This document shows, piece by piece, positions 1 to 14,244 of a DNA stretch of 14,244 nucleotides. The position numbers and the translations under genes are program-made. Below the pieces are notes generated by a model. The model did no database searches. It saw only the letters and a program-made list of their open reading frames with translations, and had not been told where the DNA came from. Source of the stretch: a virus (taxonomy: Duplodnaviria > Heunggongvirae > Uroviricota > Caudoviricetes); the IMG/VR virus record IMGVR_UViG_2859777919_000005. One strand, 5' to 3'. The first letter of the stretch is position 1. Every line of letters starts with the position of its first letter.

Positions 1-491
1 CTACGATAACCGCGCATTCAACATGGCTATCTGTTCGTCGTTCATGTCATCAATCCACATACCGTAAATTTCATACACCATTTGCGCAGTTTCATGCCCC
101 ATCTGGCTGGCTATAAATGCCGGGTTCGCTCCTGCCGTCAACAGCCAGCAGGCAAAAGTATGTCGCGTATGGTACGGATTACGGCGGCGAATACCAGCAC
201 GTTTTACTGCTGCATTCCATCTTGCACCCAAACTGCTTACCGAGTAATAAGGTTTCTGTTTTTCGTTACACACCCTGGGCATGAAAACAAAATGCAGTTT
301 TTGCTTTTCAGTTCTGCCGTACTCCCGATGATAAAAAGTGATTTCGCTTTTGCGATGATGCCCGGTCAGTTTGTATTGCTCCTTCAGTGCTTCAAGAGCC
401 GGCTGCAGTAATGTTACCGTCCGGATCCCGGCATTTGTTTTTGGGGGACCGAACATATCAAGTATCGTCAGGTTTCTTCTGACATTCACAA
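1..491 (-). pseudogene. Phage tyrosine integrase, C-terminal catalytic fragment (N-terminus removed by IS600)
   Basis: Minus-strand frame is open from the IS600 junction at 491 to a TAG stop at 3..1. The translation contains YHTRHTFACWLLTAGANPAFIASQMGHETAQMVYEIYGMW, the R-H-x-x-R...Y catalytic region of tyrosine recombinases. Only about 163 codons remain of an expected 350-400. The MPVHL N-terminus in the ORF track is IS600-derived (TTG pseudo-start). Confidence 0.8.
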
Positions 492-534
492 TGAGGTGTA
501 CTGGCAATAGCGGACACTACCATTTGTTCTTTTT

Positions 535-1353
535 TTAAGCAGCCATCTGATGATATTTTTCCCTGAAGGCTGCCGGGGAGATATTCCCCAGACGAGAGTG
601 ACGACGCTGACGATTGTAGAAAATCTCAATGTATTCCCGTATTACTGAGATGGCTTCATCCCGGTTATTAAAACGATAGTGGCTCAGGCTCTCATTTTTC
701 AGCGTTCCCCAGAAGCTTTCCATCGGAGCGTTGTCGTAACAGTTACCTTTACGCGACATTGATGTTTTCAGACCAGACTGCTCCTGTATGACCCGGTAAT
801 CGTATGCGCAGTACTGTGAACCTCGATCAGAGTGGTGGATTAGCCCGGCAGGTGGGCGCTGGCTCCTGAGCGCCATAAACAGGGCTTTACCTGTCAGCTC
901 TTTTGTCATGCGCTCTCCCATGGCGTAGCCGACAATTTCGCACGTATAAACATCTTTGATGCCAGCGAGGTACAACCATCCCTCCTGTGTGGCAACATAC
1001 GTCAGGTCCGCCACCCAGACCTGATTTGGTGCTGTAGGAGCGAACGTCTGGTTCAGCAGATTTGGCGCAACTGGCAGATTGTGGTTCGAGTTCGTAGTCG
1101 CTCTGAACTTGCGTTTCTGCTTACAGCGTAGCCTTAGCTCCTTACGAAGACGTGCCAGTCGGTCACGACCAACGATGATGCCATTCTCTGCCAGCTCCGT
1201 CTGGAGCCGCCGGGTTCCATATGTTTCGCGAGTGCGGATATGTGCCACCTTAATCTCCAGTTTTAGCCGCTCATCACTTTGTTTTCTGTCTGAGGGTTCA
1301 TGCTGTACCCAGTTGTAATAACCGCTCCTGGATACACCAAATACCTGACACAT
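535..1353 (-). CDS. IS600 OrfB (272 aa; DDE integrase-like catalytic domain)
   Basis: ORF with its own ATG; its frame stays open upstream through the A7 run, consistent with OrfAB fusion by -1 frameshifting (established for the IS3 family). This is the only IS600 copy in the window in which that fused frame is unbroken. Confidence 0.8.
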   Translation of the reverse strand: MCQVFGVSRSGYYNWVQHEPSDRKQSDERLKLEIKVAHIRTRETYGTRRLQTELAENGIIVGRDRLARLRKELRLRCKQKRKFRATTNSNHNLPVAPNLLNQTFAPTAPNQVWVADLTYVATQEGWLYLAGIKDVYTCEIVGYAMGERMTKELTGKALFMALRSQRPPAGLIHHSDRGSQYCAYDYRVIQEQSGLKTSMSRKGNCYDNAPMESFWGTLKNESLSHYRFNNRDEAISVIREYIEIFYNRQRRHSRLGNISPAAFREKYHQMAA

Positions 1354-1388
1354 CGCTTCAATGGGAAATTGTTGTCGCCATTGTTCGA

Positions 1389-1691
1389 TTAACGCGTATT
1401 TTTCAGCGACTCCTGTGCAAAATACGCTGTTGCTTTTTTTAATATATCTCGCTCAAGGCGAGCTTCATTTAACGCCTTACGCAGTTGCAGAATTTCAGAT
1501 TCCAGTTCAGCCACCGTGCGGGAACCAGGAGTACCGAGCCCTTTTCTGGCGGCGGTAACCCATTGTCCTAAAGTGCCTTCAGGAAGAGATAATCGGGAAG
1601 CGCCTTCACTGATCGAAAGTTGATTTTCAGGAACCGTTCTGACAGCTTCGGCTTTGAACTCTTTAGAGTAACGTTGGGTTTTTCTGCTCAT
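1389..1691 (-). CDS. IS600 OrfA (100 aa; HTH DNA-binding part of the OrfAB transposase)
   Basis: ORF MSRKTQRYSKEFKAEAVRTV... with the same protein repeated in the other three IS600 copies. An A7 run (complement of 1434-1440) near its 3' end is a candidate -1 programmed frameshift site, and the orfB frame is open across it. Confidence 0.8.
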   Translation of the reverse strand: MSRKTQRYSKEFKAEAVRTVPENQLSISEGASRLSLPEGTLGQWVTAARKGLGTPGSRTVAELESEILQLRKALNEARLERDILKKATAYFAQESLKNTR

Positions 1692-1894: not shown

Positions 1895-1909
1895 GGTAAT
1901 GACTCCAAC

Positions 1910-2413
1910 TTATTGATAGTGTTTTATGTTCAGATAATGCCCGATGACTTTGTCATGCAGCTCCACCGATTTTGAGAACGACAGCGACTTCCGTCCCAGC
2001 CGTGCCAGGTGCTGCCTCAGATTCAGGTTATGCCGCTCAATTCGCTGCGTATATCGCTTGCTGATTACGTGCAGCTTTCCCTTCAGGCGGGATTCATACA
2101 GCGGCCAGCCATCCGTCATCCATATCACCACGTCAAAGGGTGACAGCAGGCTCATAAGACGCCCCAGCGTCGCCATAGTGCGTTCACCGAATACGTGCGC
2201 AACAACCGTCTTCCGGAGACTGTCATACGCGTAAAACAGCCAGCGCTGGCGCGATTTAGCCCCGACATAGCCCCACTGTTCGTCCATTTCCGCGCAGACG
2301 ATGACGTCACTGCCCGGCTGTATGCGCGAGGTTACCGACTGCGGCCTGAGTTTTTTAAGTGACGTAAAATCGTGTTGAGGCCAACGCCCATAATGCGTGC
2401 AGTTGCCCGGCAT
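1910..2413 (-). CDS. insB: IS1 InsB (167 aa; expressed as InsAB' by -1 frameshift)
   Basis: ORF ...[53 protein letters not shown]..., overlapping the insA 3' end in the -1 frame. Confidence 0.9.
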
Positions 2414-2607
2414 CCAACGCCATTCATGGCCATATCAATGATTTTCTGGTGCGTACCGGGTTGAGAAGCGGTGTAAGTGAACTGCAGTTGCCATGTTTTA
2501 CGGCAGTGAGAGCAGAGATAGCGCTGATGTCCGGCAGTGCTTTTGCCGTTACGCACCACCCCGTCAGTAGCTGAACAGGAGGGACAGCTGATAGAAACAG
2601 AAGCCAC
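2332..2607 (-). CDS. insA: IS1 InsA (91 aa)
   Basis: [42 protein letters not shown]..., the zinc-finger/HTH IS1 InsA. The A6C frameshift motif (TTAAAAAAC on the minus strand, about 2350-2358) sits at its 3' end. Confidence 0.9.
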
Positions 2608-2662
2608 TGGAGCACCTCAAAAACACCATCATACACTAAATCAGTAAGTTGGCAGCATCACC

Positions 2663-2672
2663 AAGATGAGTT
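2663..2672. repeat. IS1 target-site duplication, right copy (AAGATGAGTT)
   Basis: Exact direct repeat of 1885-1894. Confidence 0.85.
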
Positions 2673-3095
2673 AAGCAATATCGTTTTATTTCCGGTAAAA
2701 GAGGATGACCCACGTAATCAGGTTAATTTTCTTTATGAACCATCGGAAAGACCATATTGCCATCACGCCTCTGTCCGGGTTGACGAAAAAGAGCGTCAGG
2801 TCCGCTGTAAAATCTGCGGTGCGGTTGTGGAGCCGTTTGACTGGATGCTCTCTGTGGCAAAAAGAGAAACCAGACTGGCAGATGATGTAAGGCTATTGCG
2901 CCAGGAGGAACAGGAAAGGCGGAGAAATATAGAAAAGCTGATACAGATTGAGCGTAACGCGAAAGCGCGGATACGCAGGGCGACAAAATCCAGAACTGAA
3001 TAATTAAATTTAGCACTGTTAAAAATTTAATCCTTAACCGGAGGGATTTCTGCACCCTCAAATCATCAGGAGACCGCCCGAAAGGGCGGTAATGA

Positions 3096-3314
3096 ATGGT
3101 TACATTATTTAGAAAAAAATATCCGCGAAAGAGTAGAACAACAGAATTCCTGTTTCTCATTCTGTTTATCGTGTTGATGACACCGATATCCCCGCTAATT
3201 TTTGTCTGGATAATCGGAAAAATAATTGAGCCAGTTATTGAATTGTATAACGACGTGGTATGGGCGTCATTCAACACACTGCACAATAAAATTAATCCGT
3301 ATAAGGAAAGCTGA
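3096..3314 (+). CDS. Small membrane protein (72 aa), hypothetical
   Basis: AT-rich ORF MVTLFRKKYPRKSRTTEFLFLILFIVLMTPISPLIFVWIIGKIIEPVIEL... with one clear hydrophobic helix. Its stop (3312-3314) is 1 nt before the HNH start codon, so the two are translationally coupled. The SD is weak, so the start is uncertain. Confidence 0.4.
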   Translation: MVTLFRKKYPRKSRTTEFLFLILFIVLMTPISPLIFVWIIGKIIEPVIELYNDVVWASFNTLHNKINPYKES

Positions 3315-3315
3315 T

Positions 3316-3681
3316 ATGGCACTGACGAAAAAACAACGTGCAGAACTGCGCATGAAGTTCGGTGGTCGCTGCGCTTATTGCGGCTGCGAACTTGGCGAAA
3401 AGTGGCATGCAGACCATGTAAAACCGGTCATTCGTTTTGATGGAAATATGCTTCACCAGGAACGTGACGATATATCCAACATGGTACCAGCATGCCACCC
3501 ATGCAATCTGCACAAGCATTGCAGTAGCCTGGAAGATTATCGACGAATTATCAGTGATGGTCGTCGTGAATTCCTTGCGTCCGGGAAAGGCAAAGCGCTG
3601 GTTCGTATGGGATTGGTTGAAATGAAATCTGACCCGGTTGTGTTCTGGTTTGAAAAATATCAAGAAGGGGCTACGGCATGA
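3316..3681 (+). CDS. HNH endonuclease (121 aa)
   Basis: SD AAGGAAAG then ATG. Translation has CAYCGCEL...HADHVKPV...NMVPACHPCNLHK, a zinc-binding CxxC pair around the H-N-H catalytic motif. Confidence 0.8.
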   Translation: MALTKKQRAELRMKFGGRCAYCGCELGEKWHADHVKPVIRFDGNMLHQERDDISNMVPACHPCNLHKHCSSLEDYRRIISDGRREFLASGKGKALVRMGLVEMKSDPVVFWFEKYQEGATA

Positions 3682-4343
3682 CCACTATTACCAAAGAGCG
3701 ACTGCAATGGCTGGCTAACATTTCTGGCCGCGATGATATTGACGATATAGACGGCGGTGAAATTCGTGAACTGGCGCTTATCGCTCTGGCATCACTGGAA
3801 GCAGAGCCTGTAGCGGAATGCATTGTTGAAGATGGGGGCATGTGTATTGACGGGTTCGGTGAGTATGTGGGTCACTCGCTGCCTGATGGAATGCATGAGC
3901 TTTATGCTGCCCCGCGAATGCGACAACCTGATGGATGGAAAGCCGTAGCTGTAGCGTGGAAGGTGACGTTTACTCAAGTTGACCAGGAATCTAATACGTT
4001 CACTGCTATATATTTTGACAAAGCGGAAGTTGAGTGTTGGGTACGACTGCATAAAGCATGTGATTTTCGGGCAGATATAACACCGCTTTACGCAGCGCCG
4101 GCAGTGCCGGTTGCAGTAAACGACGACATGGCTTACGCATTCCATCACGCACTGTCAGATTCATCGCTTGGCTCTGATGAAATCGAAGAAATTAAAACCG
4201 GTTTGCGTGCTGCCTTTGCCAACGTCACTATCCAACCAGAGCCGATAGTGCCGGATGAAATCGGGCCAAACGATAGTAATACGTTTGATTATGTTGATGG
4301 CTGGAACGCCTGCCGCGCTGCCATGCTTAAGGGAGATAAATAA
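3678..4343 (+). CDS. Hypothetical prophage early-region protein (221 aa) with duplicated LYAAP motif
   Basis: Start overlaps the HNH stop (ATGA), with SD AAGGGG upstream. Acidic protein containing two LYAAP-containing segments (MHELYAAPRMRQPDGWKAVAV and ITPLYAAPAVPVAV). No family recognised. Confidence 0.7.
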   Translation: MTTITKERLQWLANISGRDDIDDIDGGEIRELALIALASLEAEPVAECIVEDGGMCIDGFGEYVGHSLPDGMHELYAAPRMRQPDGWKAVAVAWKVTFTQVDQESNTFTAIYFDKAEVECWVRLHKACDFRADITPLYAAPAVPVAVNDDMAYAFHHALSDSSLGSDEIEEIKTGLRAAFANVTIQPEPIVPDEIGPNDSNTFDYVDGWNACRAAMLKGDK

Positions 4344-4708
4344 TGATTAATCGAACCAAACTGGAGCACATTCTCGAATATGCCAGGCAGCAGAAATGTA
4401 TTGGGCAACTTTGTAAAATTCCACCAGGAGATATGGTTGAAATCGTGGAAATGGCCATGCGTAAGGCTGGCAACTCTCCGGTAGCTCCGGCTGGCTGGAT
4501 AAGCTGTAGTGATGCAGTTCCTGCTGAATATTGCGATGTGATTCTTCTCGATGATCTCGGGAATGTATTCCCCGGTTCCTGGGATAAGGTTTTTTGCCCC
4601 ACTCGTGGCGGGAATAAGATGGCTTTTGTGGACAAAGACGGCGTTGAAGTAGAGAGCTCAACTCACTGGATGCCGCTACCGGAACCACCGCAGGAGGTGA
4701 ATCAATGA
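4343..4708 (+). CDS. DUF551-family prophage protein (121 aa)
   Basis: Start overlaps the upstream stop (TAATG), with SD AAGGGAGA. The C-terminal ...THWMPLPEPPQE matches the W-x-PLP-x-PP tail I recall for DUF551 proteins of enterobacterial prophages. Confidence 0.7.
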   Translation: MINRTKLEHILEYARQQKCIGQLCKIPPGDMVEIVEMAMRKAGNSPVAPAGWISCSDAVPAEYCDVILLDDLGNVFPGSWDKVFCPTRGGNKMAFVDKDGVEVESSTHWMPLPEPPQEVNQ

Positions 4709-4788
4709 CCTGGCCTGAGGCATTCACCACGGTAGGAATTGCGATGGCGGTGGCGCTGGTGGTGTATTCGATTTGCCGTTGGGGTTAA
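4705..4788 (+). CDS. 27-aa hydrophobic peptide (MTWPEAFTTVGIAMAVALVVYSICRWG), hypothetical
   Basis: Strong SD AGGAGGTGA 7 nt upstream; ATG overlaps the DUF551 stop (ATGA); a single predicted transmembrane helix; followed directly by an intrinsic terminator. Below the ORF-track length cutoff. Confidence 0.5.
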   Translation: MTWPEAFTTVGIAMAVALVVYSICRWG

Positions 4789-4798
4789 CAAACAAAAA

Positions 4799-4824
4799 CC
4801 CCGGATTGATGGTCCGGGGTTTTT
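4799..4824 (+). terminator. Rho-independent terminator ending the plus-strand operon
   Basis: CCCCGGA (4799-4805) / TCCGGGG (4813-4819) perfect 7-bp GC stem with a 7-nt loop, followed by TTTTT; preceded by an A run, so it could act in both directions. Confidence 0.75.
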
Positions 4825-5162
4825 GAAGGAAACAAAACAGAAACAGCAATTGCCGTTACCTGTTGTTACCATGGCAAGTAAACGTATCTCAGGCGAGCGC
4901 ATTGCGCCGTTCTGACGCAGATAAACTAGCCTGGATAGATGGTGCTGGCAATAAAAAATAGCGTTTTCTTATCGGTGTCGGTAAGATTGCTGCGGGTGCT
5001 TGAGGCTGTCTGCCTCGGGTATGTCACTGTAAGGCAGACAGAGAAAAGCCCCAGTTAACATTACGCGTCCTGCAAGACGCTTAACATTAATCTGAGGCCC
5101 AATCTATGTCTCACAAATGTAGGTTAGCCTCTTACGTGCCGAAAGGCAAGGAGAAGCAGGCT

Positions 5163-5318
5163 ATGAAGCAGCAAAAGGCGATGTTAATCGCCCTGATCGT
5201 CATCTGTTTAACCGTCATTGTGACGGCACTGGTAACGAGGAAAGACCTCTGCGAGGTACGAATCCGAATCGGCCAGACGGAGGTCGCTGTTTTCGTAGAC
5301 TACGAATCTAGAGAGTAA
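5163..5318 (+). CDS. hok: Hok/Gef-family type I toxin (51 aa)
   Basis: MKQQKAMLIALIVICLTVIVTALVTRKDLCEVRIRIGQTEVAVFVDYESRE has an N-terminal transmembrane helix and the conserved TRKDLCEV...GQTEVAVF core. It is closest to HokD/RelF and HokC/Gef as I remember them. The ORF-track extension to 5106 is in frame but probably not the start; SD AAGGAGAAG precedes the ATG at 5163. Confidence 0.85.
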   Translation: MKQQKAMLIALIVICLTVIVTALVTRKDLCEVRIRIGQTEVAVFVDYESRE

Positions 5319-5380
5319 GAGTGACCAGGCGGGAGAGTAATCTCCCGCCACCTTTGATGTGTCAGGCATCCTCAACGCAC

Positions 5381-5410
5381 CCGCACTTAACCCGTTTCGG
5401 CGGTTTTTTT
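5381..5410 (+). terminator. Probable 3' end/terminator of the hok mRNA (abutted by IS1)
   Basis: GC-rich segment CCGCACTTAACCCGTTTCGGCGG followed by T7 at 5404-5410. The stem is imperfect. Preceded by a perfect 9-bp hairpin GGCGGGAGA-GTAA-TCTCCCGCC (5328-5349) right after the hok stop. Confidence 0.4.
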
Positions 5411-5425
5411 GGTAATGACTCCAAC

Positions 5426-5928
5426 TTATTGATAGTGTTTTATGTTCAGATAATGCCCGATGACTTTGTCATGCAGCTCCACCGATTTTGAGAACGACAG
5501 CGACTTCCGTCCCAGCCGTGCCAGGTGCTGCCTCAGATTCAGGTTATGCCGCTCAATTCGCTGCGTATATCGCTTGCTGATTACGTGCAGCTTTCCCTTC
5601 AGGCGGGATTCATACAGCGGCCAGCCATCCGTCATCCATATCACCACGTCAAAGGGTGACAGCAGGCTCATAAGACGCCCCAGCGTCGCCATAGTGCGTT
5701 CACCGAATACGTGCGCAACAACCGTCTTCCGGAGACTGTCATACGCGTAAAACAGCCAGCGCTGGCGCGATTTAGCCCGACATAGCCCCACTGTTCGTCC
5801 ATTTCCGCGCAGACGATGACGTCACTGCCCGGCTGTATGCGCGAGGTTACCGACTGCGGCCTGAGTTTTTTAAGTGACGTAAAATCGTGTTGAGGCCAAC
5901 GCCCATAATGCGTGCAGTTGCCCGGCAT
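5426..5928 (-). pseudogene. insB: IS1 insB, frameshifted (copy 2)
   Basis: The InsB reading frame is split into two overlapping ORFs (5426-5791 and 5668-5928) by the 1-bp deletion. Confidence 0.8.
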
Positions 5929-6122
5929 CCAACGCCATTCATGGCCATATCAATGATTTTCTGGTGCGTACCGGGTTGGGAAGCGGTGTAAGTGAACTGC
6001 AGTTGCCATGTTTTACGGCAGTGAGAGCAGAGATAGCGCTGATGTCCGGCAGTGCTTTTGCCGTTACGCACCACCCCGTCAGTAGCTGAACAGGAGGGAC
6101 AGCTGATAGAAACAGAAGCCAC
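5847..6122 (-). CDS. insA: IS1 InsA (91 aa), copy 2
   Basis: Identical protein to copy 1 insA. Confidence 0.85.
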
Positions 6123-6283
6123 TGGAGCACCTCAAAAACACGATCATACACTAAATCAGTAAGTTGGCAGCATCACCTTTTGTCTCTATGTTGATATAAC
6201 CGTTTGTACTTATAAACCTTGAGGTAGCCTGAGTTTAACGGACACTCCTTCCTGAAATAGAATGGCATCAGAAGGAGCTAATA

Positions 6284-6586
6284 ATGAGCAGAAAAACCCA
6301 ACGTTACTCTAAAGAGTTCAAAGCCGAAGCTGTCAGAACGGTTCTTGAAAATCAACTTTCGATCAGTGAAGGCGCTTCCCGATTATCTCTTCCTGAAGGC
6401 ACTTTAGGACAATGGGTTACCGCCGCCAGAAAAGGGCTCGGTACTCCTGGTTCCCGCACGGTGGCTGAACTGGAATCTGAAATTCTGCAACTGCGTAAGG
6501 CGTTAAATGAAGCTCGCCTTGAGCGAGATATATTAAAAAAAGCAACAGCGTATTTTGCACAGGAGTCGCTGAAAAATACGCGTTAA
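6284..6586 (+). CDS. IS600 OrfA (100 aa), copy 2
   Basis: Full-length OrfA; differs from copy 1 at one residue (L versus P in RTVLENQ). Confidence 0.75.
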   Translation: MSRKTQRYSKEFKAEAVRTVLENQLSISEGASRLSLPEGTLGQWVTAARKGLGTPGSRTVAELESEILQLRKALNEARLERDILKKATAYFAQESLKNTR

Positions 6587-6623
6587 TCGAACAATGGCGA
6601 CAACAATTTCCCATTGAAGCGAT

Positions 6624-7438
6624 GTGTCAGGTATTTGGTGTATCCAGGGCGGTTATTACAACTGGGTACAGCATGAACCCTCAGACAGAAAACAAAGTGA
6701 TGAGCGGCTAAAACTGGAGATTAAGGTGGCACATATCCGCACTCGCGAAACATATGGAACCCGGCGGCTCCAGACGGAGCTGGCAGAGAATGGCATCATC
6801 GTTGGTCGTGACCGACTGGCACGTCTTCGTAAGGAGCTAAGGCTACGCTGTAAGCAGAAACGCAAGTTCAGAGCGACTACGAACTCGAACCACAATCTGC
6901 CAGTTGCGCCAAATCTGCTGAACCAGACGTTCGCTCCTACAGCACCAAATCAGGTCTGGGTGGCGGACCTGACGTATGTTGCCACACAGGAGGGATGGTT
7001 GTACCTCGCTGGCATCAAAGATGTTTATACGTGCGAAATTGTCGGCTACGCCATGGAGAGCGCATGACAAAAGAGCTGACAGGTAAAGCCCTGTTTATGG
7101 CGCTCAGGAGCCAGCGCCCACCTGCCGGGCTAATCCACCACTCTGATCGAGGTTCACAGTACTGCGCATACGATTACCGGGTCATACAGGAGCAGTCTGG
7201 TCTGAAAACATCAATGTCGCGTAAAGGTAACTGTTACGACAACGCTCCGATGGAAAGCTTCTGGGGAACGCTGAAAAATGAGAGCCTGAGCCACTATCGT
7301 TTTAATAACCGGGATGAAGCCATCTCAGTAATACGGGAATACATTGAGATTTTCTACAATCGTCAGCGTCGTCACTCTCGTCTGGGGAATATCTCCCCGG
7401 CAGCCTTCAGGGAAAAATATCATCAGATGGCTGCTTAA
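6624..7438 (+). pseudogene. IS600 orfB, frameshifted (copy 2)
   Basis: OrfB sequence is split across two overlapping ORFs (6624-7067 and 6995-7438). Confidence 0.8.
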
Positions 7439-7663: not shown

Positions 7664-7738
<75 letters not shown>

Positions 7739-7741
7739 ATA

Positions 7742-7817
<76 letters not shown>

Positions 7818-7819
7818 GC

Positions 7820-7896
7820 TGGCCCACCACCGAGGACTCGAACCTCGCACCGTCAACTTAGAAGGTTGATGCTCTATCCGGATGAGCTAGTGGTGG
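7820..7896 (-). tRNA. tRNA-Arg (anticodon UCU), argN-like
   Basis: Reverse complement CCACCACTAGCTCATCCGGATAGAGCATCAACCTTCTAAGTTGACGGTGCGAGGTTCGAGTCCTCGGTGGTGGGCCA; acceptor CCACCAC/GTGGTGG, anticodon stem TCAAC/GTTGA, loop CTTCTAA, T stem CGAGG/CCTCG, encoded CCA. The unusual C1:G72 start makes the exact 5' boundary less certain. Confidence 0.8.
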
Positions 7897-7897
7897 T

Positions 7898-7974
7898 TGG
7901 TGGCCCTTGCTGGACTTGAACCAGCGACCTGGCGATTATGAGTCGCTCGCTCTGACCAACTGAGCTAAAGGGCC
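7898..7974 (-). tRNA. tRNA with CAU anticodon, ileX/ileZ-like (Ile2, lysidine-dependent) or Met
   Basis: Reverse complement GGCCCTTTAGCTCAGTTGGTCAGAGCGAGCGACTCATAATCGCCAGGTCGCTGGTTCAAGTCCAGCAAGGGCCACCA; anticodon loop CTCATAA. Overall close to E. coli ileX as I recall it, hence probably an AUA-reading tRNA-Ile2. Confidence 0.8.
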
Positions 7975-8718: not shown

Positions 8719-9005
8719 AAATATCCCTCCTTTCTCCAGATTTCTTGTGTGCGAAAAACACCTTCTGCATGCATCAGGCGTAATTCTTCTTTGGTGTAAT
8801 CGCTGGTTTTTACCCGCCCGTCGATTAAATCGTGGCACGAGCTACAGGCAATCGCTGCCTGCATATCGTGTGGCTTTATCGCTGTTCCGCACGTTCCCGC
8901 CAGTCGGTAATGCGCCAGCACAGACGTTTCCGGATCGTGATTGCAGTAGCCAGGAATTCTGACGGTGCACATCTGCCCCCGCGCCGCTTTACGTAAATCC
9001 ACCAT
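8715..9005 (-). CDS. DUF1364 (YbcO-like) nin-region protein (96 aa)
   Basis: MVDLRKAARGQMCTVRIPGYCNHDPETSVLAHYRLAGTCGTAIKPHDMQAAIACSSCHDLIDGR... with the Cys/His pattern I recall for YbcO of the DLP12 nin region. Start overlaps the upstream stop (TAATG). Confidence 0.7.
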   Translation of the reverse strand: MVDLRKAARGQMCTVRIPGYCNHDPETSVLAHYRLAGTCGTAIKPHDMQAAIACSSCHDLIDGRVKTSDYTKEELRLMHAEGVFRTQEIWRKEGYL

Positions 9006-9604
9006 TACGCAAACTCCAGCAGCTGCGCGGCCACATTTTCGACTTGTTCCGGAGAGGAAAATTTACGGAACAGAATCCAGTTCCACAGCACATTCAGAAC
9101 AGATTTATAAACCTGCTGAAACTCGGTTTCGTCCATATTCGCAAAAGCGATGGATTTTGCCCGACGCCCGCGGCTACCGTCCGGATAAAAATGTTCGGTG
9201 TAAAATCCAGCCTGAATGGTTACCCACTCGCGAAAAGCCTCAAACGACTTTAGCAATGCCGTATCCCGGGTTCTGCGTGTCGCAACTGTATTCAGATATT
9301 GCTCTGCGGCTTCGCTCAGAGCTGGCGTATGTTCCCGACCTACTGATTCGCACAGGTAATCAACGAAACCAGACAGCAGTTCTCGTTCGCGAGGCGTGAT
9401 CGCCCCACCGACCGGAGTCCAGTAATCGAATCCCAGTTGCAGGAGTTTGAAAAAACGCTTGTGGAATGCGTAGTTACGCACACGCTTAAAGTCTGCGTGT
9501 ATCCACTCACCTGTTTTGATTTGATGCAGAAAATCGCAACTCTCCGGCGTCGCCGGGAGAAGTAATCCGGAAGAGGTTTGTTTGATCAGTTGTATATGCG
9601 CCAT
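9005..9604 (-). CDS. Nin-region protein, possibly DUF1367 family (199 aa)
   Basis: ORF MAHIQLIKQTSSGLLLPATPESCDFLHQIKTGEWIHADFKRVRNYAFHKRFF... with SD GGAGAA upstream; translationally coupled to the DUF1364 gene. Family assignment from memory only. Confidence 0.45.
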   Translation of the reverse strand: MAHIQLIKQTSSGLLLPATPESCDFLHQIKTGEWIHADFKRVRNYAFHKRFFKLLQLGFDYWTPVGGAITPRERELLSGFVDYLCESVGREHTPALSEAAEQYLNTVATRRTRDTALLKSFEAFREWVTIQAGFYTEHFYPDGSRGRRAKSIAFANMDETEFQQVYKSVLNVLWNWILFRKFSSPEQVENVAAQLLEFA

Positions 9605-9936: not shown

Positions 9937-10749
9937 TTAAGCAGCCATCTGATGATATTTTTCCCTGAAGGCTGCCGGGGAGATATTCCCCAGACGAGAG
10001 TGACGACGCTGACGATTGTAGAAAATCTCAATGTATTCCCGTATTACTGAGATGGCTTCATCCCGGTTATTAAAACGATAGTGGCTCAGGCTCTCATTTT
10101 TCAGCGTTCCCCAGAAGCTTTCCATCGGAGCGTTGTCGTAACAGTTACCTTTACGCGACATTGATGTTTTCAGACCAGACTGCTCCTGTATGACCCGGTA
10201 ATCGTATGCGCAGTACTGTGAACCTCGATCAGAGTGGTGGATTAGCCCGGCAGGTGGGCGCTGGCTCCTGAGCGCCATAAACAGGGCTTTACCTGTCAGC
10301 TCTTTTGTCATGCGCTCTCCCATGGCGTAGCCGACAATTTCGCACGTATAAACATCTTTGATGCCAGCGAGGTACAACCATCCCTCCTGTGTGGCAACAT
10401 ACGTCAGGTCCGCCACCCAGACCTGATTTGGTGCTGTAGGAGCGAACGTCTGGTTCAGCAGATTTGGCGCAACTGGCAGATTGTGGTTCGAGTTCGTAGT
10501 CGCTCTGAACTTGCGTTTCTGCTTACAGCGTAGCCTTAGCTCCTTACGAAGACGTGCCAGTCGGTCACGACCAACGATGATGCCATTCTCTGCCAGCTCC
10601 GTCTGGAGCCGCCGGGTTCCATATGTTTCGCGAGTGCGGATATGTGCCACCTTAATCTCCAGTTTTAGCCGCTCATCACTTTGTTTTCTGTCTGAGGGTT
10701 CATGCTGTACCCAGTTGTAATAACCGCTCATACACCAAATACCTGACAC
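9937..10749 (-). CDS. IS600 orfB, copy 3 (270 aa, GTG start, altered N-terminus; probably non-functional without orfA)
   Basis: ORF identical to copy 1 OrfB after residue 10; the N-terminus is shifted by the 4-bp deletion. Confidence 0.5.
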   Translation of the reverse strand: MSGIWCMSGYYNWVQHEPSDRKQSDERLKLEIKVAHIRTRETYGTRRLQTELAENGIIVGRDRLARLRKELRLRCKQKRKFRATTNSNHNLPVAPNLLNQTFAPTAPNQVWVADLTYVATQEGWLYLAGIKDVYTCEIVGYAMGERMTKELTGKALFMALRSQRPPAGLIHHSDRGSQYCAYDYRVIQEQSGLKTSMSRKGNCYDNAPMESFWGTLKNESLSHYRFNNRDEAISVIREYIEIFYNRQRRHSRLGNISPAAFREKYHQMAA

Positions 10750-10786
10750 ATCGCTTCAATGGGAAATTGTTGTCGCCATTGTTCGA

Positions 10787-11066
10787 TTAACGCGTATTTT
10801 TCAGCGACTCCTGTGCAAAATACGCTGTTGCTTTTTTTAATATATCTCGCTCAAGGCGAGCTTCATTTAACGCCTTACGCAGTTGCAGAATTTCAGATTC
10901 CAGTTCAGCCACCGTGCGGGAACCAGGAGTACCGAGCCCTTTTCTGGCGGCGGTAACCCATTGTCCTAAAGTGCCTTCAGGAAGAGATAATCGGGAAGCG
11001 CCTTCACTGATCGAAAGTTGATTTTCAAGAACCGTTCTGACAGCTTCAGCTTTGAACTCTTTAGAG
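10787..11066 (-). pseudogene. IS600 orfA, 5'-truncated (copy 3)
   Basis: OrfA residues from SKEFKAEAV onward are present; the first 8 codons and the left inverted repeat are missing. Confidence 0.8.
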
Positions 11067-11739
11067 GTATCGATACCGGCTGACCACACAGCGCTTCGGG
11101 AACGCTGTAACGATTACCACCAACCTCGATATAGCTGTCCCAGGACACATGGCGGATATCGAAGTAACTGGTATCGAAGTCTGTATCCGGTAACGGCTGC
11201 AGATGTTCCTGCTCCAGCGCGAAGCGCTGTTCCGGCGTTTCTTTGAACTGGCGAAGCTCCCGTTTGTCAGCCACATCGGCTATCCATTGCTCCAGTTGTT
11301 GATTGACATGAGTGAAGCTGTCGAACCTGCGGTACCGGACGAAGAAGTTCTCCTTGAGGTATTTCACCATCCGCTCAACCTTACCTTTTGTTCTGGCCCT
11401 GCGTGGACGGCATGCCCGTGGCAGGAAGTTATAGTGGTCAGCCAGCAACAGGAATCCGGAGTTGAACACGACTTTCCCGTTGTTATTCTTCAGCACCGCA
11501 GCCTTCTGGTTATCAACCAGCACCGTTTTCACACAATCACCGAAGTAGCGGAAGGCGCGAACCAGTGATTCGTAGGTATGCTCAGCATCCTGTTTTGGTG
11601 CGGCGAAGACATGGAAGCTGCGGGAGAACCCCAGCGTATTAACCGCAAAGTTAACTTTGCACCGTTGCCCGGCAACCTCCACCTCAACTTCGCCCCAGTC
11701 ATGCTGGAGCTGGTATCCAGGCTGAGTTTCGAAGCGAAC
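11067..11739 (-). pseudogene. IS21-family transposase istA, internal fragment
   Basis: Minus-strand frame encodes ...FHVFAAPKQDAEHTYESLVRAFRYFGDCVKTVLVDNQKAAVLKNNNGKVVFNSGFLLLADHYNFLPRACRPRRARTKGKVERMVKYLKENFF..., which I recognise as the catalytic region of IstA-type transposases. Cut at both ends by IS600 copies; no start codon and no inverted repeats of its own. Confidence 0.65.
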
Positions 11740-11803: not shown

Positions 11804-12136
11804 ATGAGCAGAAAAACCCAACGTTACTCTAAAGAGTTCAAAGCCGAAGCTGTCAGAACGGTTCTTGAAAATCAACTTTCGATCAGTGAAGGCGCTTCCC
11901 GATTATCTCTTCCTGAAGGCACTTTAGGACAATGGGTTACCGCCGCCAGAAAAGGGCTCGGTACTCCTGGTTCCCGCACGGTGGCTGAACTGGAATCTGA
12001 AATTCTGCAACTGCGTAAGGCGTTAAATGAAGCTCGCCTTGAGCGAGATATATTAAAAAAAGCAACAGCGTATTTTGCACAGGAGTCGCTGAAAATACGC
12101 GTTAATCGAACAATGGCGACAACAATTTCCCATTGA
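11804..12136 (+). pseudogene. IS600 orfA with frameshifted 3' end (copy 4)
   Basis: 110-aa ORF: OrfA residues 1-96, then a frameshifted tail IRVNRTMATTISH. Confidence 0.65.
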
Positions 12137-12142
12137 AGCGAT

Positions 12143-12957
12143 GTGTCAGGTATTTGGTGTATCCGGGGCGGTTATTACAACTGGGTACAGCATGAACCCT
12201 CAGACAGAAAACAAAGTGATGAGCGGCTAAAACTGGAGATTAAGGTGGCACATATCCGCACTCGCGAAACATATGGAACCCGGCGGCTCCAGACGGAGCT
12301 GGCAGAGAATGGCATCATCGTTGGTCGTGACCGACTGGCACGTCTTCGTAAGGAGCTAAGGCTACGCTGTAAGCAGAAACGCAAGTTCAGAGCGACTACG
12401 AACTCGAACCACAATCTGCCAGTTGCGCCAAATCTGCTGAACCAGACGTTCGCTCCTACAGCACCAAATCAGGTCTGGGTGGCGGACCTGACGTATGTTG
12501 CCACACAGGAGGGATGGTTGTACCTCGCTGGCATCAAAGATGTTTATACGTGCGAAATTGTCGGCTACGCCATGGGAGAGCGCATGACAAAGAGCTGACA
12601 GGTAAAGCCCTGTTTATGGCGCTCAGGAGCCAGCGCCCACCTGCCGGGCTAATCCACCACTCTGATCGAGGTTCACAGTACTGCGCATACGATTACCGGG
12701 TCATACAGGAGCAGTCTGGTCTGAAAACATCAATGTCGCGTAAAGGTAACTGTTACGACAACGCTCCGATGGAAAGCTTCTGGGGAACGCTGAAAAATGA
12801 GAGCCTGAGCCACTATCGTTTTAATAACCGGGATGAAGCCATCTCAGTAATACGGGAATACATTGAGATTTTCTACAATCGTCAGCGTCGTCACTCTCGT
12901 CTGGGGAATATCTCCCCGGCAGCCTTCAGGGAAAAATATCATCAGATGGCTGCTTAA
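12143..12957 (+). pseudogene. IS600 orfB, frameshifted (copy 4)
   Basis: OrfB sequence is split across two overlapping ORFs (12143-12598 and 12514-12957). Confidence 0.8.
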
Positions 12958-13000
12958 AAAAAGAACAAATGGTAGTGTCCGCTATTGCCAGTACACCTCA

Positions 13001-14244
13001 GCCGTCTGGCGATACCCGGCGCATTCGGCTTTGGGTGTGCTTTTCTGCCTGAAGATGTTATCCGTTTTGACACTAAGAGTGATTTCCTGGCCTGGGTAAG
13101 GAATGCGCTGCCAGGTGAATATTCCGTTGCTGGCCCCTACGACATCATCATACCCGACACACGGTTTGAAGGGGTGCTCAGCATCCGGTGGACTGATGCA
13201 CGCCCTGAGACAACAGAACCGAGGTACAGAGCCAAATCCCTTACTTTTTACGGCATTAACGGCCCCATTTATCACACCCGCTACTGCTACTGGCCCATAT
13301 CCAGACTGACTGGCTGGGTGAAAATAAATATAACCACAGAAGATATTATTTACAGAATCGTGGCGAGCTCTGTCTGCAACAGATGGGGAGACCCTGACAT
13401 TGGCGGGCTGATTATTGCTGCGTACCAGGGAGAAGCTGACGGTGATAAAGTCATCAGACTTGTCAGGGGGCAGTCATACAGAGGCTCACGACTGGGACCG
13501 GTGGGGATTTCAGTGCCCAGTACTCCCACCGGAACGTATATAGCATCCCCACAATTTTCATTACGGGATGTTCAGAGCATTCATTACCGGGGTCATATAG
13601 CGCCCTGTCCGGGGTGCCGGATGCTCATGTCTCTGGCGCAATGCCCGGGCTTTTTATTCGCACATCGTGAGGAATGCACCGTGGAAATTAAAAAAATCAT
13701 TAATCCCCGTTATACCGAAAGTGGCGCAGTAGACTGTGACGTTTTTTTTGACGACAGGGACCAGGCAGTCCCCTACACAGCCACCGCTGATGATGTCGCA
13801 CCGACGGGTCAGCGAATCTGGCAGGAACTGCAAAGTGGCAAATGGGGTGAGATAGCCCCATTCACTGTGACACCAGAAATGCTGGAAGCGGCCAGAGAGG
13901 CCAGACGTCAGGGAATTGAAGCATGGCGCACAGAACAGGAGGCGAAGCCGTTCACGTTTGAATGGAACGGTCGTATCTGGAATGCTGGCCCCAACTCACT
14001 GGGCCGCCTTTATCCGGTGGTAATGGCTGCGAAATCCGACATTGTACGGGACGTGATGACGTGGGGTGATGCCGATAATCAGCAGGTGAAACAGTCGATG
14101 CCGGAACTGGAAGAACTGGCGGCAGCAATGGCTCAGGCACAGGTTGAGCGCAATGACGAGATTTATCGCCGTCAGCGGGAGCTGAAGGAAGAGCTGAATA
14201 GTCTGAAGGATTTGAATTCGGTTAGGAATTTTATCGTGGAATAA
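13001..14244 (+). pseudogene. C-terminal 414 codons of an unidentified protein, N-terminally truncated by IS600 copy 4
   Basis: Long open frame from the IS600 junction to TAA at 14242-14244. The N-terminal part is Cys/Gly-rich and looks beta-rich (...YDIIIPDTRFEGVLSIRWTDARPETTEPRYRAKSLTFYGINGPIYHTRYCYWPISRLTGWVKINITTEDIIYRIV...); the last 60 aa are a charged, coiled-coil-like tail (...MPELEELAAAMAQAQVERNDEIYRRQRELKEELNSLKDL...). No family recognised; a phage tail-fibre distal domain is one guess. Confidence 0.6.

Follow-up and report, generated by a model that had tools for sequence, protein, structure and literature searches.

The exo-xis and nin regions of lambda and Shiga toxin (Stx) phages are composed of small, mostly uncharacterised and non-essential early genes, which overlap at their starts and stops and are arranged as mosaics. 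Among the exo-xis genes, orf60a, orf61, orf63, orf73, ea8.5 and ea22 have been named (PMC10789677, PMC10834534). The variants of Ea22 are themselves mosaic, with acidic C-terminal domains, and DUF551 is known as a portable domain (PMC10834534). Rad52-like phage recombinases drive exchange among diverged phage and prophage sequences, and the nin regions are included in this traffic (PMC3945230). Here we analysed a stretch of 14,244 nucleotides, called the window below, from the Caudoviricetes record IMGVR_UViG_2859777919_000005. It carries a string of five intact open reading frames (ORFs) on one strand (3096-4788), checked directly against the window sequence: a DUF4014 gene, an HNH endonuclease gene, a gene for a 221-aa protein, a DUF551 gene and a gene for a 27-aa peptide (p27). 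None of the characterised exo-xis genes is among these five, but in gene size, overlaps and mosaicism the string resembles the exo-xis and nin regions. Very probably, it is an ordinary mosaic accessory-gene string of a lambdoid prophage, whose products act individually and do not constitute a five-part machine.

Independent assortment of the five genes

The original prediction had regarded the five chained ORFs as a translationally coupled, co-adapted unit with a plausible role in superinfection exclusion or host takeover. The chain itself is as described, since all coordinates match and the junctions follow each other as TGAtATG, ATGA, TAATG and ATGA. The strong terminator announced behind the last ORF is also present: the hairpin at 4793-4825 folds with -23 kcal/mol (z = -5.75) and is followed by UUUUUG, none of 200 shuffled sequences folded equally well, and a terminator scan picked up the same element. 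Given the A- and U-runs on its flanks, it is potentially bidirectional. Co-transcription and coupled translation of the five ORFs can therefore be considered reasonable inferences from this layout.

The genes do not stay together in other genomes. At a coverage of at least 80%, the whole block is present in two of 5,426 complete Escherichia coli genomes, and no phage record carries it. Among IMG/VR contigs it was found in 17, whose 221-aa proteins are at least 98% identical. Counted one by one, the genes are carried by between 2 and 1,287 of these E. coli genomes (last column of Table 1). Partners of each gene were collected by junction-anchored ORF extraction from locus sets comprising the best 80 matches per query. 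In 97 HNH-anchored viral loci, the 3' junction of the HNH gene is ATGA in 93 of 95 cases and leads into downstream ORFs of at least 23 clusters, while its 5' junction is TGAnATG, with one-base spacing, in 93 of the 97 loci and follows upstream ORFs of at least 19 clusters. The DUF4014 gene precedes the HNH gene in 31 of 74 loci; in the other 43, the place is filled by at least five gene families, always with one-base spacing. For p27, the ATGA coupling holds in 76 of 85 cases, and this behind 15 different upstream clusters. Similarly, the annotated relatives ArgO145 and vB_EcoS-689R5 display -4, -8, -1 and +1 junctions throughout, irrespective of gene content. Since each junction recurs with many alternative partners, coupling appears as a generic property of the region and not as the mark of a co-adapted unit. 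The gene-neighbourhood comparison, proposed together with the original prediction, thus shows independent assortment of each ORF, and also of the individual modules within the 221-aa and DUF551 proteins, an outcome that the prediction itself had named as its refutation.

Conservation at the junctions extends slightly beyond the overlapping codons. The joints consist of the stop/start overlap and the ~15 nt with which each gene opens (TGAnATG; ATGAC-N-ACT-W-TTACC) and are common to many alternative cassettes. Behind the HNH gene, for instance, the joint reads ATGAC[C/G/A/T]ACT[A/T]TTACCA, after which the different partners diverge completely. The HNH ORF is a precise optional insert of 363 nt: strings devoid of it read ...AAGGAAAGCTGAtATGACCACTATTACC..., with the empty site TGAtATGACCACTATTACC, and the filled site of the window reads ...AAGGAAAGCTGAtATG[GCACTG...363 nt...GGCATG]ACCACTATTACC..., with the insert bounded by ATG. 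Non-nuclease cassettes are equally optional and have equally sharp bounds.

Two oddities were observed at such joints. In the viral locus L172 (IMGVR_UViG_2574180332_000004, ~2716-2760), the gene after DUF4014 carries at its start the 9-nt unit ACCACTATT three times in tandem, giving MTTITTITTIT, which looks like slippage or unequal exchange right at a cassette joint. In two other loci, L128 and L092, the HNH junction is ATGG instead of ATGA and the stop codon is lost, so additional residues may be joined in frame to the HNH protein, or translation may read on.

The location of the string in relatives corresponds to the known accessory regions. In E. coli FDAARGOS_944, the same 2.7-kb block (99.8% identity) lies between YdaU/DnaC-like ATPase/DUF977 genes and DUF1367/DUF1364/DUF1133 genes, with tRNAs, lysis genes and terminase coming after the latter; in a Rac/DLP12-like lambdoid prophage, this place corresponds to the nin region. 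The Stx2a phage ArgO145 has up119 (the 118-aa gene that precedes the string in the window), DUF4014, HNH and p27 in its exo-xis region, flanked by the exonuclease gene on one side and int on the other. vB_EcoS-689R5 carries different small genes in the corresponding interval, from replication protein O to Q, with p27 and hok again as the last of them. More generally, the exo-xis regions of ArgO145, VT2-Sakai and 933W carry cassettes common to this string (up119, DUF4014, HNH, p27 and Ea22-like), and the replication-to-Q interval of Rac-like prophages carries these cassettes too. Both the location in FDAARGOS_944 and ArgO145 and the mosaic hypervariability (23 and 19 partner clusters of HNH, 15 of p27) are those of a lambdoid nin or exo-xis accessory string. 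In contrast to the exo-xis regions of intact phages, the region in the window belongs to a dead remnant cut by insertion sequence (IS) elements.

Directly downstream of the terminator, Rfam finds sok and Pfam the mok/hok ORF, which agrees with the prophage setting beside hok as first described. The intact hok/sok cassette occupies the same place as mokW/hokW/sokW in 933W, but it is a separate transcription unit past the terminator. Since it is missing after the string in ArgO145, it is no member of the five-gene string. The spacer between terminator and hok/sok (4825-4993, 169 nt) contains no ORF and no RNA-family match. The distance from p27 to mok differs among relatives, being ~157 nt in some and ~320 nt in others.

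Table 1. Features of the 14,244-nt window and occurrence of the five genes in 5,426 complete E. coli genomes
Feature	Position	Strand	Remarks	E. coli genomes
Phage integrase fragment	1-507	-	left window edge	
IS3-family copy or fragment	535-1691		100-aa HTH_Tnp_1 and ~270-aa rve ORFs	
up119	1869-1894 + 2673-3003	+	118-aa gene, PHROG 1621; split by IS1	
IS1 copy 1	1895-2662	-	768 bp; simple insertion; InsA/InsB ORFs; ends read directly	
DUF4014 leader	3004-3095	+	92 nt, conserved; AGGAG 3068-3072, hairpin 3074-3089, ATG 3096	
DUF4014 gene	3096-3314	+	72 aa	787 (with leader)
HNH gene	3316-3681	+	121 aa; preceding TGA 3312-3314, one T, then ATG	385
221-aa gene	3678-4343	+	ATGA overlap with HNH gene	2
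DUF551 gene	4343-4708	+	121 aa; TAATG junction	2
27-aa peptide gene (p27)	4705-4788	+	ATGA overlap with DUF551 gene	1,287 at ≥80% coverage; 1,298 (24%) in the overall count
Hairpin and U-run	4793-4825	+	intrinsic terminator-like; flanking A-/U-runs; end of string	
hok/sok cassette	4994-5318	+	Rfam RF01794 sok 4994-5168, 118 bits; PF01848 1.7e-21	
mok/hok ORF	5106-5318	+	within hok/sok cassette	
IS1 copy 2	5411-6177	-	767 bp, one base shorter; 99.6% identical to copy 1	
IS3-family copy or fragment	6284-7438		100-aa HTH_Tnp_1 and ~270-aa rve ORFs	
Prophage tRNA cluster	7664-7974	-	Gly-TCC, Thr-TGT, Arg-TCT, CAT-anticodon tRNA	
DUF1367 gene	9005-9604	-	inverted relative to block	
IS3-family copy or fragment	9937-11089		100-aa HTH_Tnp_1 and ~270-aa rve ORFs	
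IS3-family copy or fragment	~11804-12957		putative; placed from ORF sizes alone	
DUF4376-containing ORF	12985-14244	+	at least 419 aa; runs past right window edge	

Properties of the individual genes

The first gene encodes a DUF4014 protein (PF13198, 1.3e-25 over the full length, 90 bits against a gathering cut-off of 23.2; phrog_1832, 1.5e-44) with one predicted membrane helix at residues ~18-41. No paper mentioning DUF4014 was found in the literature. The leader of this gene is predicted to be strongly folded: the region 3040-3110 reaches -27.2 kcal/mol (z = -4.2), and the GNRA hairpin CCGCCC-GAAA-GGGCGG within it reaches -16.6 kcal/mol, with z = -5.2 for 3066-3098. This hairpin, noticed earlier at 3072-3089, is real, but it starts two bases further on, at 3074. 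It is kept 5' of most DUF4014 alleles, where changes in the stem are mostly C to T with G-U pairing retained. A role as an intrinsic terminator was rejected, as the U-run is absent. The GNRA loop could also recall a nut/boxB-like site, but reading of the leader revealed no boxA-like element and the position is wrong. In phage T4, hairpins bridge the 'split' ribosome-binding sites of genes 38 and 25. A similar arrangement is observed here, with AGGAG placed 23 nt from the ATG and a stable hairpin between them; if formed, this hairpin would reduce the effective spacing to ~5 nt. Unlike in the T4 sites, other DUF4014 alleles have an ordinary AAGGAG with normal spacing and are coupled to the upstream gene.

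The identities first given to the second and fourth genes, HNH and DUF551, hold. The HNH protein matches PF01844 with 28.2 bits (cut-off 21.4), and the residues of the beta-beta-alpha-metal fold are all in place in an intact motif CxxC...HADH...N...CxxC-N (C19/C22, H30-A-D-H33, N55 and C59/C62-N64 in the alignment to PDB 4h9d), which together assign it to the HNH endonucleases; in a sequence search of the PDB, 4h9d is a weak match (E = 0.058). Both the cysteines predicted to bind zinc and the H-N-N pattern of the catalytic site are preserved. Its best PHROG is the generic phage HNH family phrog_2118 (8.8e-57), followed by secondary matches to endonuclease VII families (2.8e-12 and 2.6e-8). The protein does not qualify as NinG/Rap (PF05766): its score of 18.2 bits (E = 0.0024) falls short of the 25.4 bits demanded by the gathering cut-off and covers profile positions 93-147 of 193. 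HNH proteins of the terminase-associated type, such as HK97 gp74, are encoded adjacent to terminase and portal genes near cos. In FDAARGOS_944, ~8.6 kb, occupied by Q-type and lysis genes, separate the HNH gene from the terminase gene downstream of it. Since it is so distant from the terminase genes, the HNH protein is not of this packaging type.

The HNH gene also appears less diverged than its neighbour. Synonymous divergence (dS) over 22 shared haplotypes is 0.08 for HNH versus 0.265 for the adjacent DUF4014 gene, in a sample biased to similar alleles. Likewise, identity in E. coli reaches at least 95% for 701 of the 704 HNH records, while it is 80-90% for 451 of 1,067 DUF4014 records; here too the HNH sample is skewed to similar alleles, and megablast misses diverged ones.

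The 221-aa protein has no Pfam match at E ≤ 0.1 and no NCBIfam family, but seven partial PHROG matches. It is acidic, with 39 D+E versus 17 K+R. Mapping of its relatives, 40 of which were aligned, divides it into modules at residues ~1-46, 47-79, 88-136 and 137-221. Parts of it are found in no fewer than 3,289 other proteins of the database, and the modules recur alone, reordered, or fused to DUF551 (PF04448) or Ead_Ea22 (PF13935). Module ends bear recurring motifs, namely IALASLEAEPVA, (P)LYAAP, GWNACRAAML, PDGWISCSERMP and HWMPLPEPPQEV, the last of which encodes the GGAGG ribosome site of p27. The two copies of LYAAP, at residues 75-79 and 137-141, had been taken as a possible mark of an internal repeat. 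The motif does occur twice, but as a linker that ends two unrelated portable modules; no homologous segments are repeated. The AlphaFold2 model of the protein has a mean predicted local distance difference test score (pLDDT) of 52.8 and attains moderate confidence just at residues ~90-138. A full-length relative, ~45% identical, occurs in phage Av-05 (locus L022).

The DUF551 protein is a clear member of its family (PF04448, 3.4e-19, 69.9 bits against a cut-off of 22) and is composed of an N-terminal helical module (1-42) followed by the small beta domain of DUF551 (~50-117). Neither this protein nor the 221-aa protein found a match in the PDB sequence search. The closest described parallels for both are the Ea22 proteins and YfdS of CPS-53 (PMC4776307), which are likewise modular, exchange their C-terminal domains and carry DUF551 as a portable C-terminal domain. 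The acidic character of the 221-aa protein and the fusion of its modules to DUF551 or Ead_Ea22 in relatives extend this similarity. Nevertheless, the 221-aa protein is no Ead/Ea22 protein: it lacks a match to PF13935, which some relatives carry fused to its C-module, and has no predicted long coiled coil. Furthermore, DUF551 has an ORF to itself here, which includes an N-module of its own.

The last gene encodes the peptide MTWPEAFTTVGIAMAVALVVYSICRWG, with a single hydrophobic helix (Kyte-Doolittle 2.11 for residues 7-23). Together with the helix of the DUF4014 protein (2.61 for residues 21-37), this agrees with the two small membrane products of the original prediction. The peptide belongs to no Pfam or PHROG family, and no paper containing its sequence was found in the literature. 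Its DNA is known in 32 variants, whose differences from the window fall overwhelmingly on third positions and often leave the peptide unaltered. Over 23 intact alleles, dN/dS (the ratio of non-synonymous to synonymous divergence) is 0.14, 20 of 27 third positions are variable, and the other two frames contain stops. This pattern of variation shows that p27 is a real and conserved coding gene, as had been called. Since selection acts on the amino-acid sequence, the peptide itself, and not the act of translation, would be under selection. An Rfam search over 4705-4788 at E ≤ 1 returned chance-level matches on the terminator only and no antisense RNA; compared with type I toxins, p27 is coupled to the upstream gene and is not a stand-alone ORF.

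By tblastn against phages, p27 homologues were found in 88 phage records. The gene is kept behind 15 upstream genes, and at least four different sequences follow it (at least three terminators, none, or another gene). Phage 933W contains an unannotated homologue, 81% identical (AF125520 58829-58909, minus strand of the record; 2501-2581 of locus L232), which shares an ATGA overlap with the 3' end of L0139, with sokW ~95 nt further on. In FDAARGOS_944, too, RefSeq has no separate gene call for p27. A few GenBank entries do list a protein of exactly this sequence, labelled hypothetical or 'bacteriophage'. Homologues that are 81% identical were also observed in phages Av-05 (H121, 120,938 bp) and vB_EcoM_TH18 (H120, 133,882 bp). 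Since these relatives of p27 sit in Escherichia phages of 120-134 kb, a size well above the lambdoid range, the cassettes travel beyond lambdoid phages.

Insertion sequences and state of the prophage remnant

The start of the unit had been placed at 3040, but the same string continues further upstream, with the 118-aa gene up119 and, before it, the 3' end of an Ea22-like gene, which is truncated by an IS3-family element. The first IS1 copy is flanked by a target duplication of 9-10 bp (AAGATGAGTT at 1885-1894 and 2663-2672), and its in-silico excision, together with one AAGATGAGTT, yields an uninterrupted ORF with full identity to WP_000403784.1 from E. coli FDAARGOS_944. The string thus starts well 5' of 3040, and the IS1 and IS3-family insertions would sever it from its native promoter here.

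The second IS1 copy has a broken transposase frame and no target duplication, its flanks being GGTTTTTTT and TTTTGTCTC. This absence suggests an IS1-mediated rearrangement instead of a simple insertion, which split the block from the downstream late-regulator genes. The possibility that the IS1-flanked block is a composite transposon was rejected, as copy 1 sits within a gene and is flanked by a target duplication of its own, and copy 2 is not accompanied by any. About four IS3-family copies or fragments are scattered over the window; the second ORF of the one at 6284-7438 is broken.

The DUF1367 gene and the cluster of four tRNAs are on the opposite strand to the block, while in FDAARGOS_944 they are on the same strand, after hok; the first tRNA of the FDAARGOS_944 cluster is tRNA-Ile in RefSeq. 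Because of this inverted orientation and of the second IS1 copy without target duplication, the window can be read from its gene order as a scrambled, decayed remnant of a lambdoid prophage, rich in insertion sequences. The DUF4376 ORF at its right edge is probably tail-fibre-related. Exact matches to the five proteins carry the names Shigella sonnei and Shigella flexneri, and the host genome is, judging by these names, likely of Shigella type.

Competing explanations and significance

As an ordinary mosaic accessory string, the five genes would belong to a more extended delayed-early operon, driven from a promoter 5' of 3040. Termination-reinitiation at the overlaps would allow any cassette to be translated regardless of its neighbour, and phage Rad52-type recombinases, which act on diverged sequences, could swap cassettes where the short joints lie. 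The terminator behind p27 would then shut the string before the autonomous hok/sok cassette. Several points weigh against this explanation. A scan of the plus strand over 2600-5450 found no sigma-70-like site. The locus sets, limited to the best matches, give counts skewed to close relatives. The conservation of the joints could result from selection on N-termini and ribosome sites and not from recombination. Strictly speaking, this particular combination might also still have some joint function.

That the five coupled genes form one co-adapted superinfection-exclusion or host-takeover module now seems extremely unlikely. Exclusion and abortive systems commonly contain a nuclease together with membrane proteins, and tight coupling, one common terminator and the adjoining hok toxin would fit with such a module. 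Nonetheless, the set is restricted to two E. coli genomes and 17 near-identical viral contigs, and all its junctions also join many alternative partners. Furthermore, a scan of six proteins against PADLOC-DB v2 yielded solely HNH-domain similarity (Septu PtuB, 3.2e-8, and PDC-M01B), with no match for the other four proteins of the string. Neither PtuA nor another partner gene is present, so the string represents no known anti-phage defence system, and a defence reading was rejected on the generic nature of these HNH matches. A cassette-exchange array, in which the joints are dedicated recombination sites, HNH breaks trigger the swaps and p27 serves as the functional end-piece, also has very little chance of being correct; if true, it would be a recombination-based counterpart of integrons for phage accessory genes. 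Another explanation, which we consider unlikely, takes the HNH gene as a free-standing selfish cassette of the homing type, which would cut HNH-less relatives close to the point of insertion, spread through recombinational repair and help to fuel local mosaicism. T-even and SPO1-like phages encode free-standing homing endonucleases of the HNH type, such as MobE and I-HmuI. The gene studied here resembles theirs as a small HNH ORF precisely inserted between genes, present or absent, and highly conserved across backgrounds; its exact empty and filled sites, its low dS relative to DUF4014, its many flanking contexts and its intact catalytic motif all argue for putative homing. However, the neighbouring non-nuclease cassettes are present or absent with equal precision, so that this pattern does not single out HNH, the sample is biased to similar HNH alleles, and the protein of just 121 aa has no separate DNA-binding domain detected by Pfam. 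The pair of empty and filled sites offers a straightforward homing test.

A role of the HNH protein as a structure-specific nuclease of recombination or replication, which resolves or nicks branched DNA like lambda Rap/NinG or T4 endonuclease VII, appears similarly doubtful. These enzymes share an HNH-type fold, an early-region location and weak profile similarity with our protein, and the secondary PHROG matches to endonuclease VII, the faint NinG match and the nin-type position beside recombination and replication genes in relatives are consistent with such a role. On the other hand, the NinG score remains under the Pfam cut-off, the protein is much shorter (121 aa versus 193 profile positions), the top PHROG is the generic HNH family, and the gene is optional, being missing from most DUF4014-bearing strings. 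Finally, p27, the single cassette retained at the 3' end of most variants, could be the key element of the string, as an inner-membrane toxin, a lysis-timing or exclusion factor, or through a translation that modulates termination; we regard this as possible, but tentative. Purifying selection, retention behind 15 upstream genes, the wide occurrence among E. coli genomes and phage records and the hydrophobic helix speak for such importance, and the p27 stop codon (4786-4788) lies just before the stem beginning at 4793, with 4-9 nt between stop and terminator stem. The variable sequence after p27 argues against a fixed attenuation device, and searches in Pfam, PHROG and Rfam revealed neither a family nor an antisense RNA for it. 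For the peptide as such, a membrane-acting role is a natural guess.

With the string read as an ordinary mosaic of individually acting genes, the type of region is already known, the block is one transient combination within it, and little depends on the five-gene unit itself. The p27 gene, in turn, is under purifying selection, is carried by roughly one in four complete E. coli genomes, is present in Stx phages such as 933W, and is under-annotated. The string is also a clear example of how, in phage early regions, overlapping stop and start codons form joints of interchangeable cassettes; such overlaps do not constitute evidence of functional partnership between the genes they connect.

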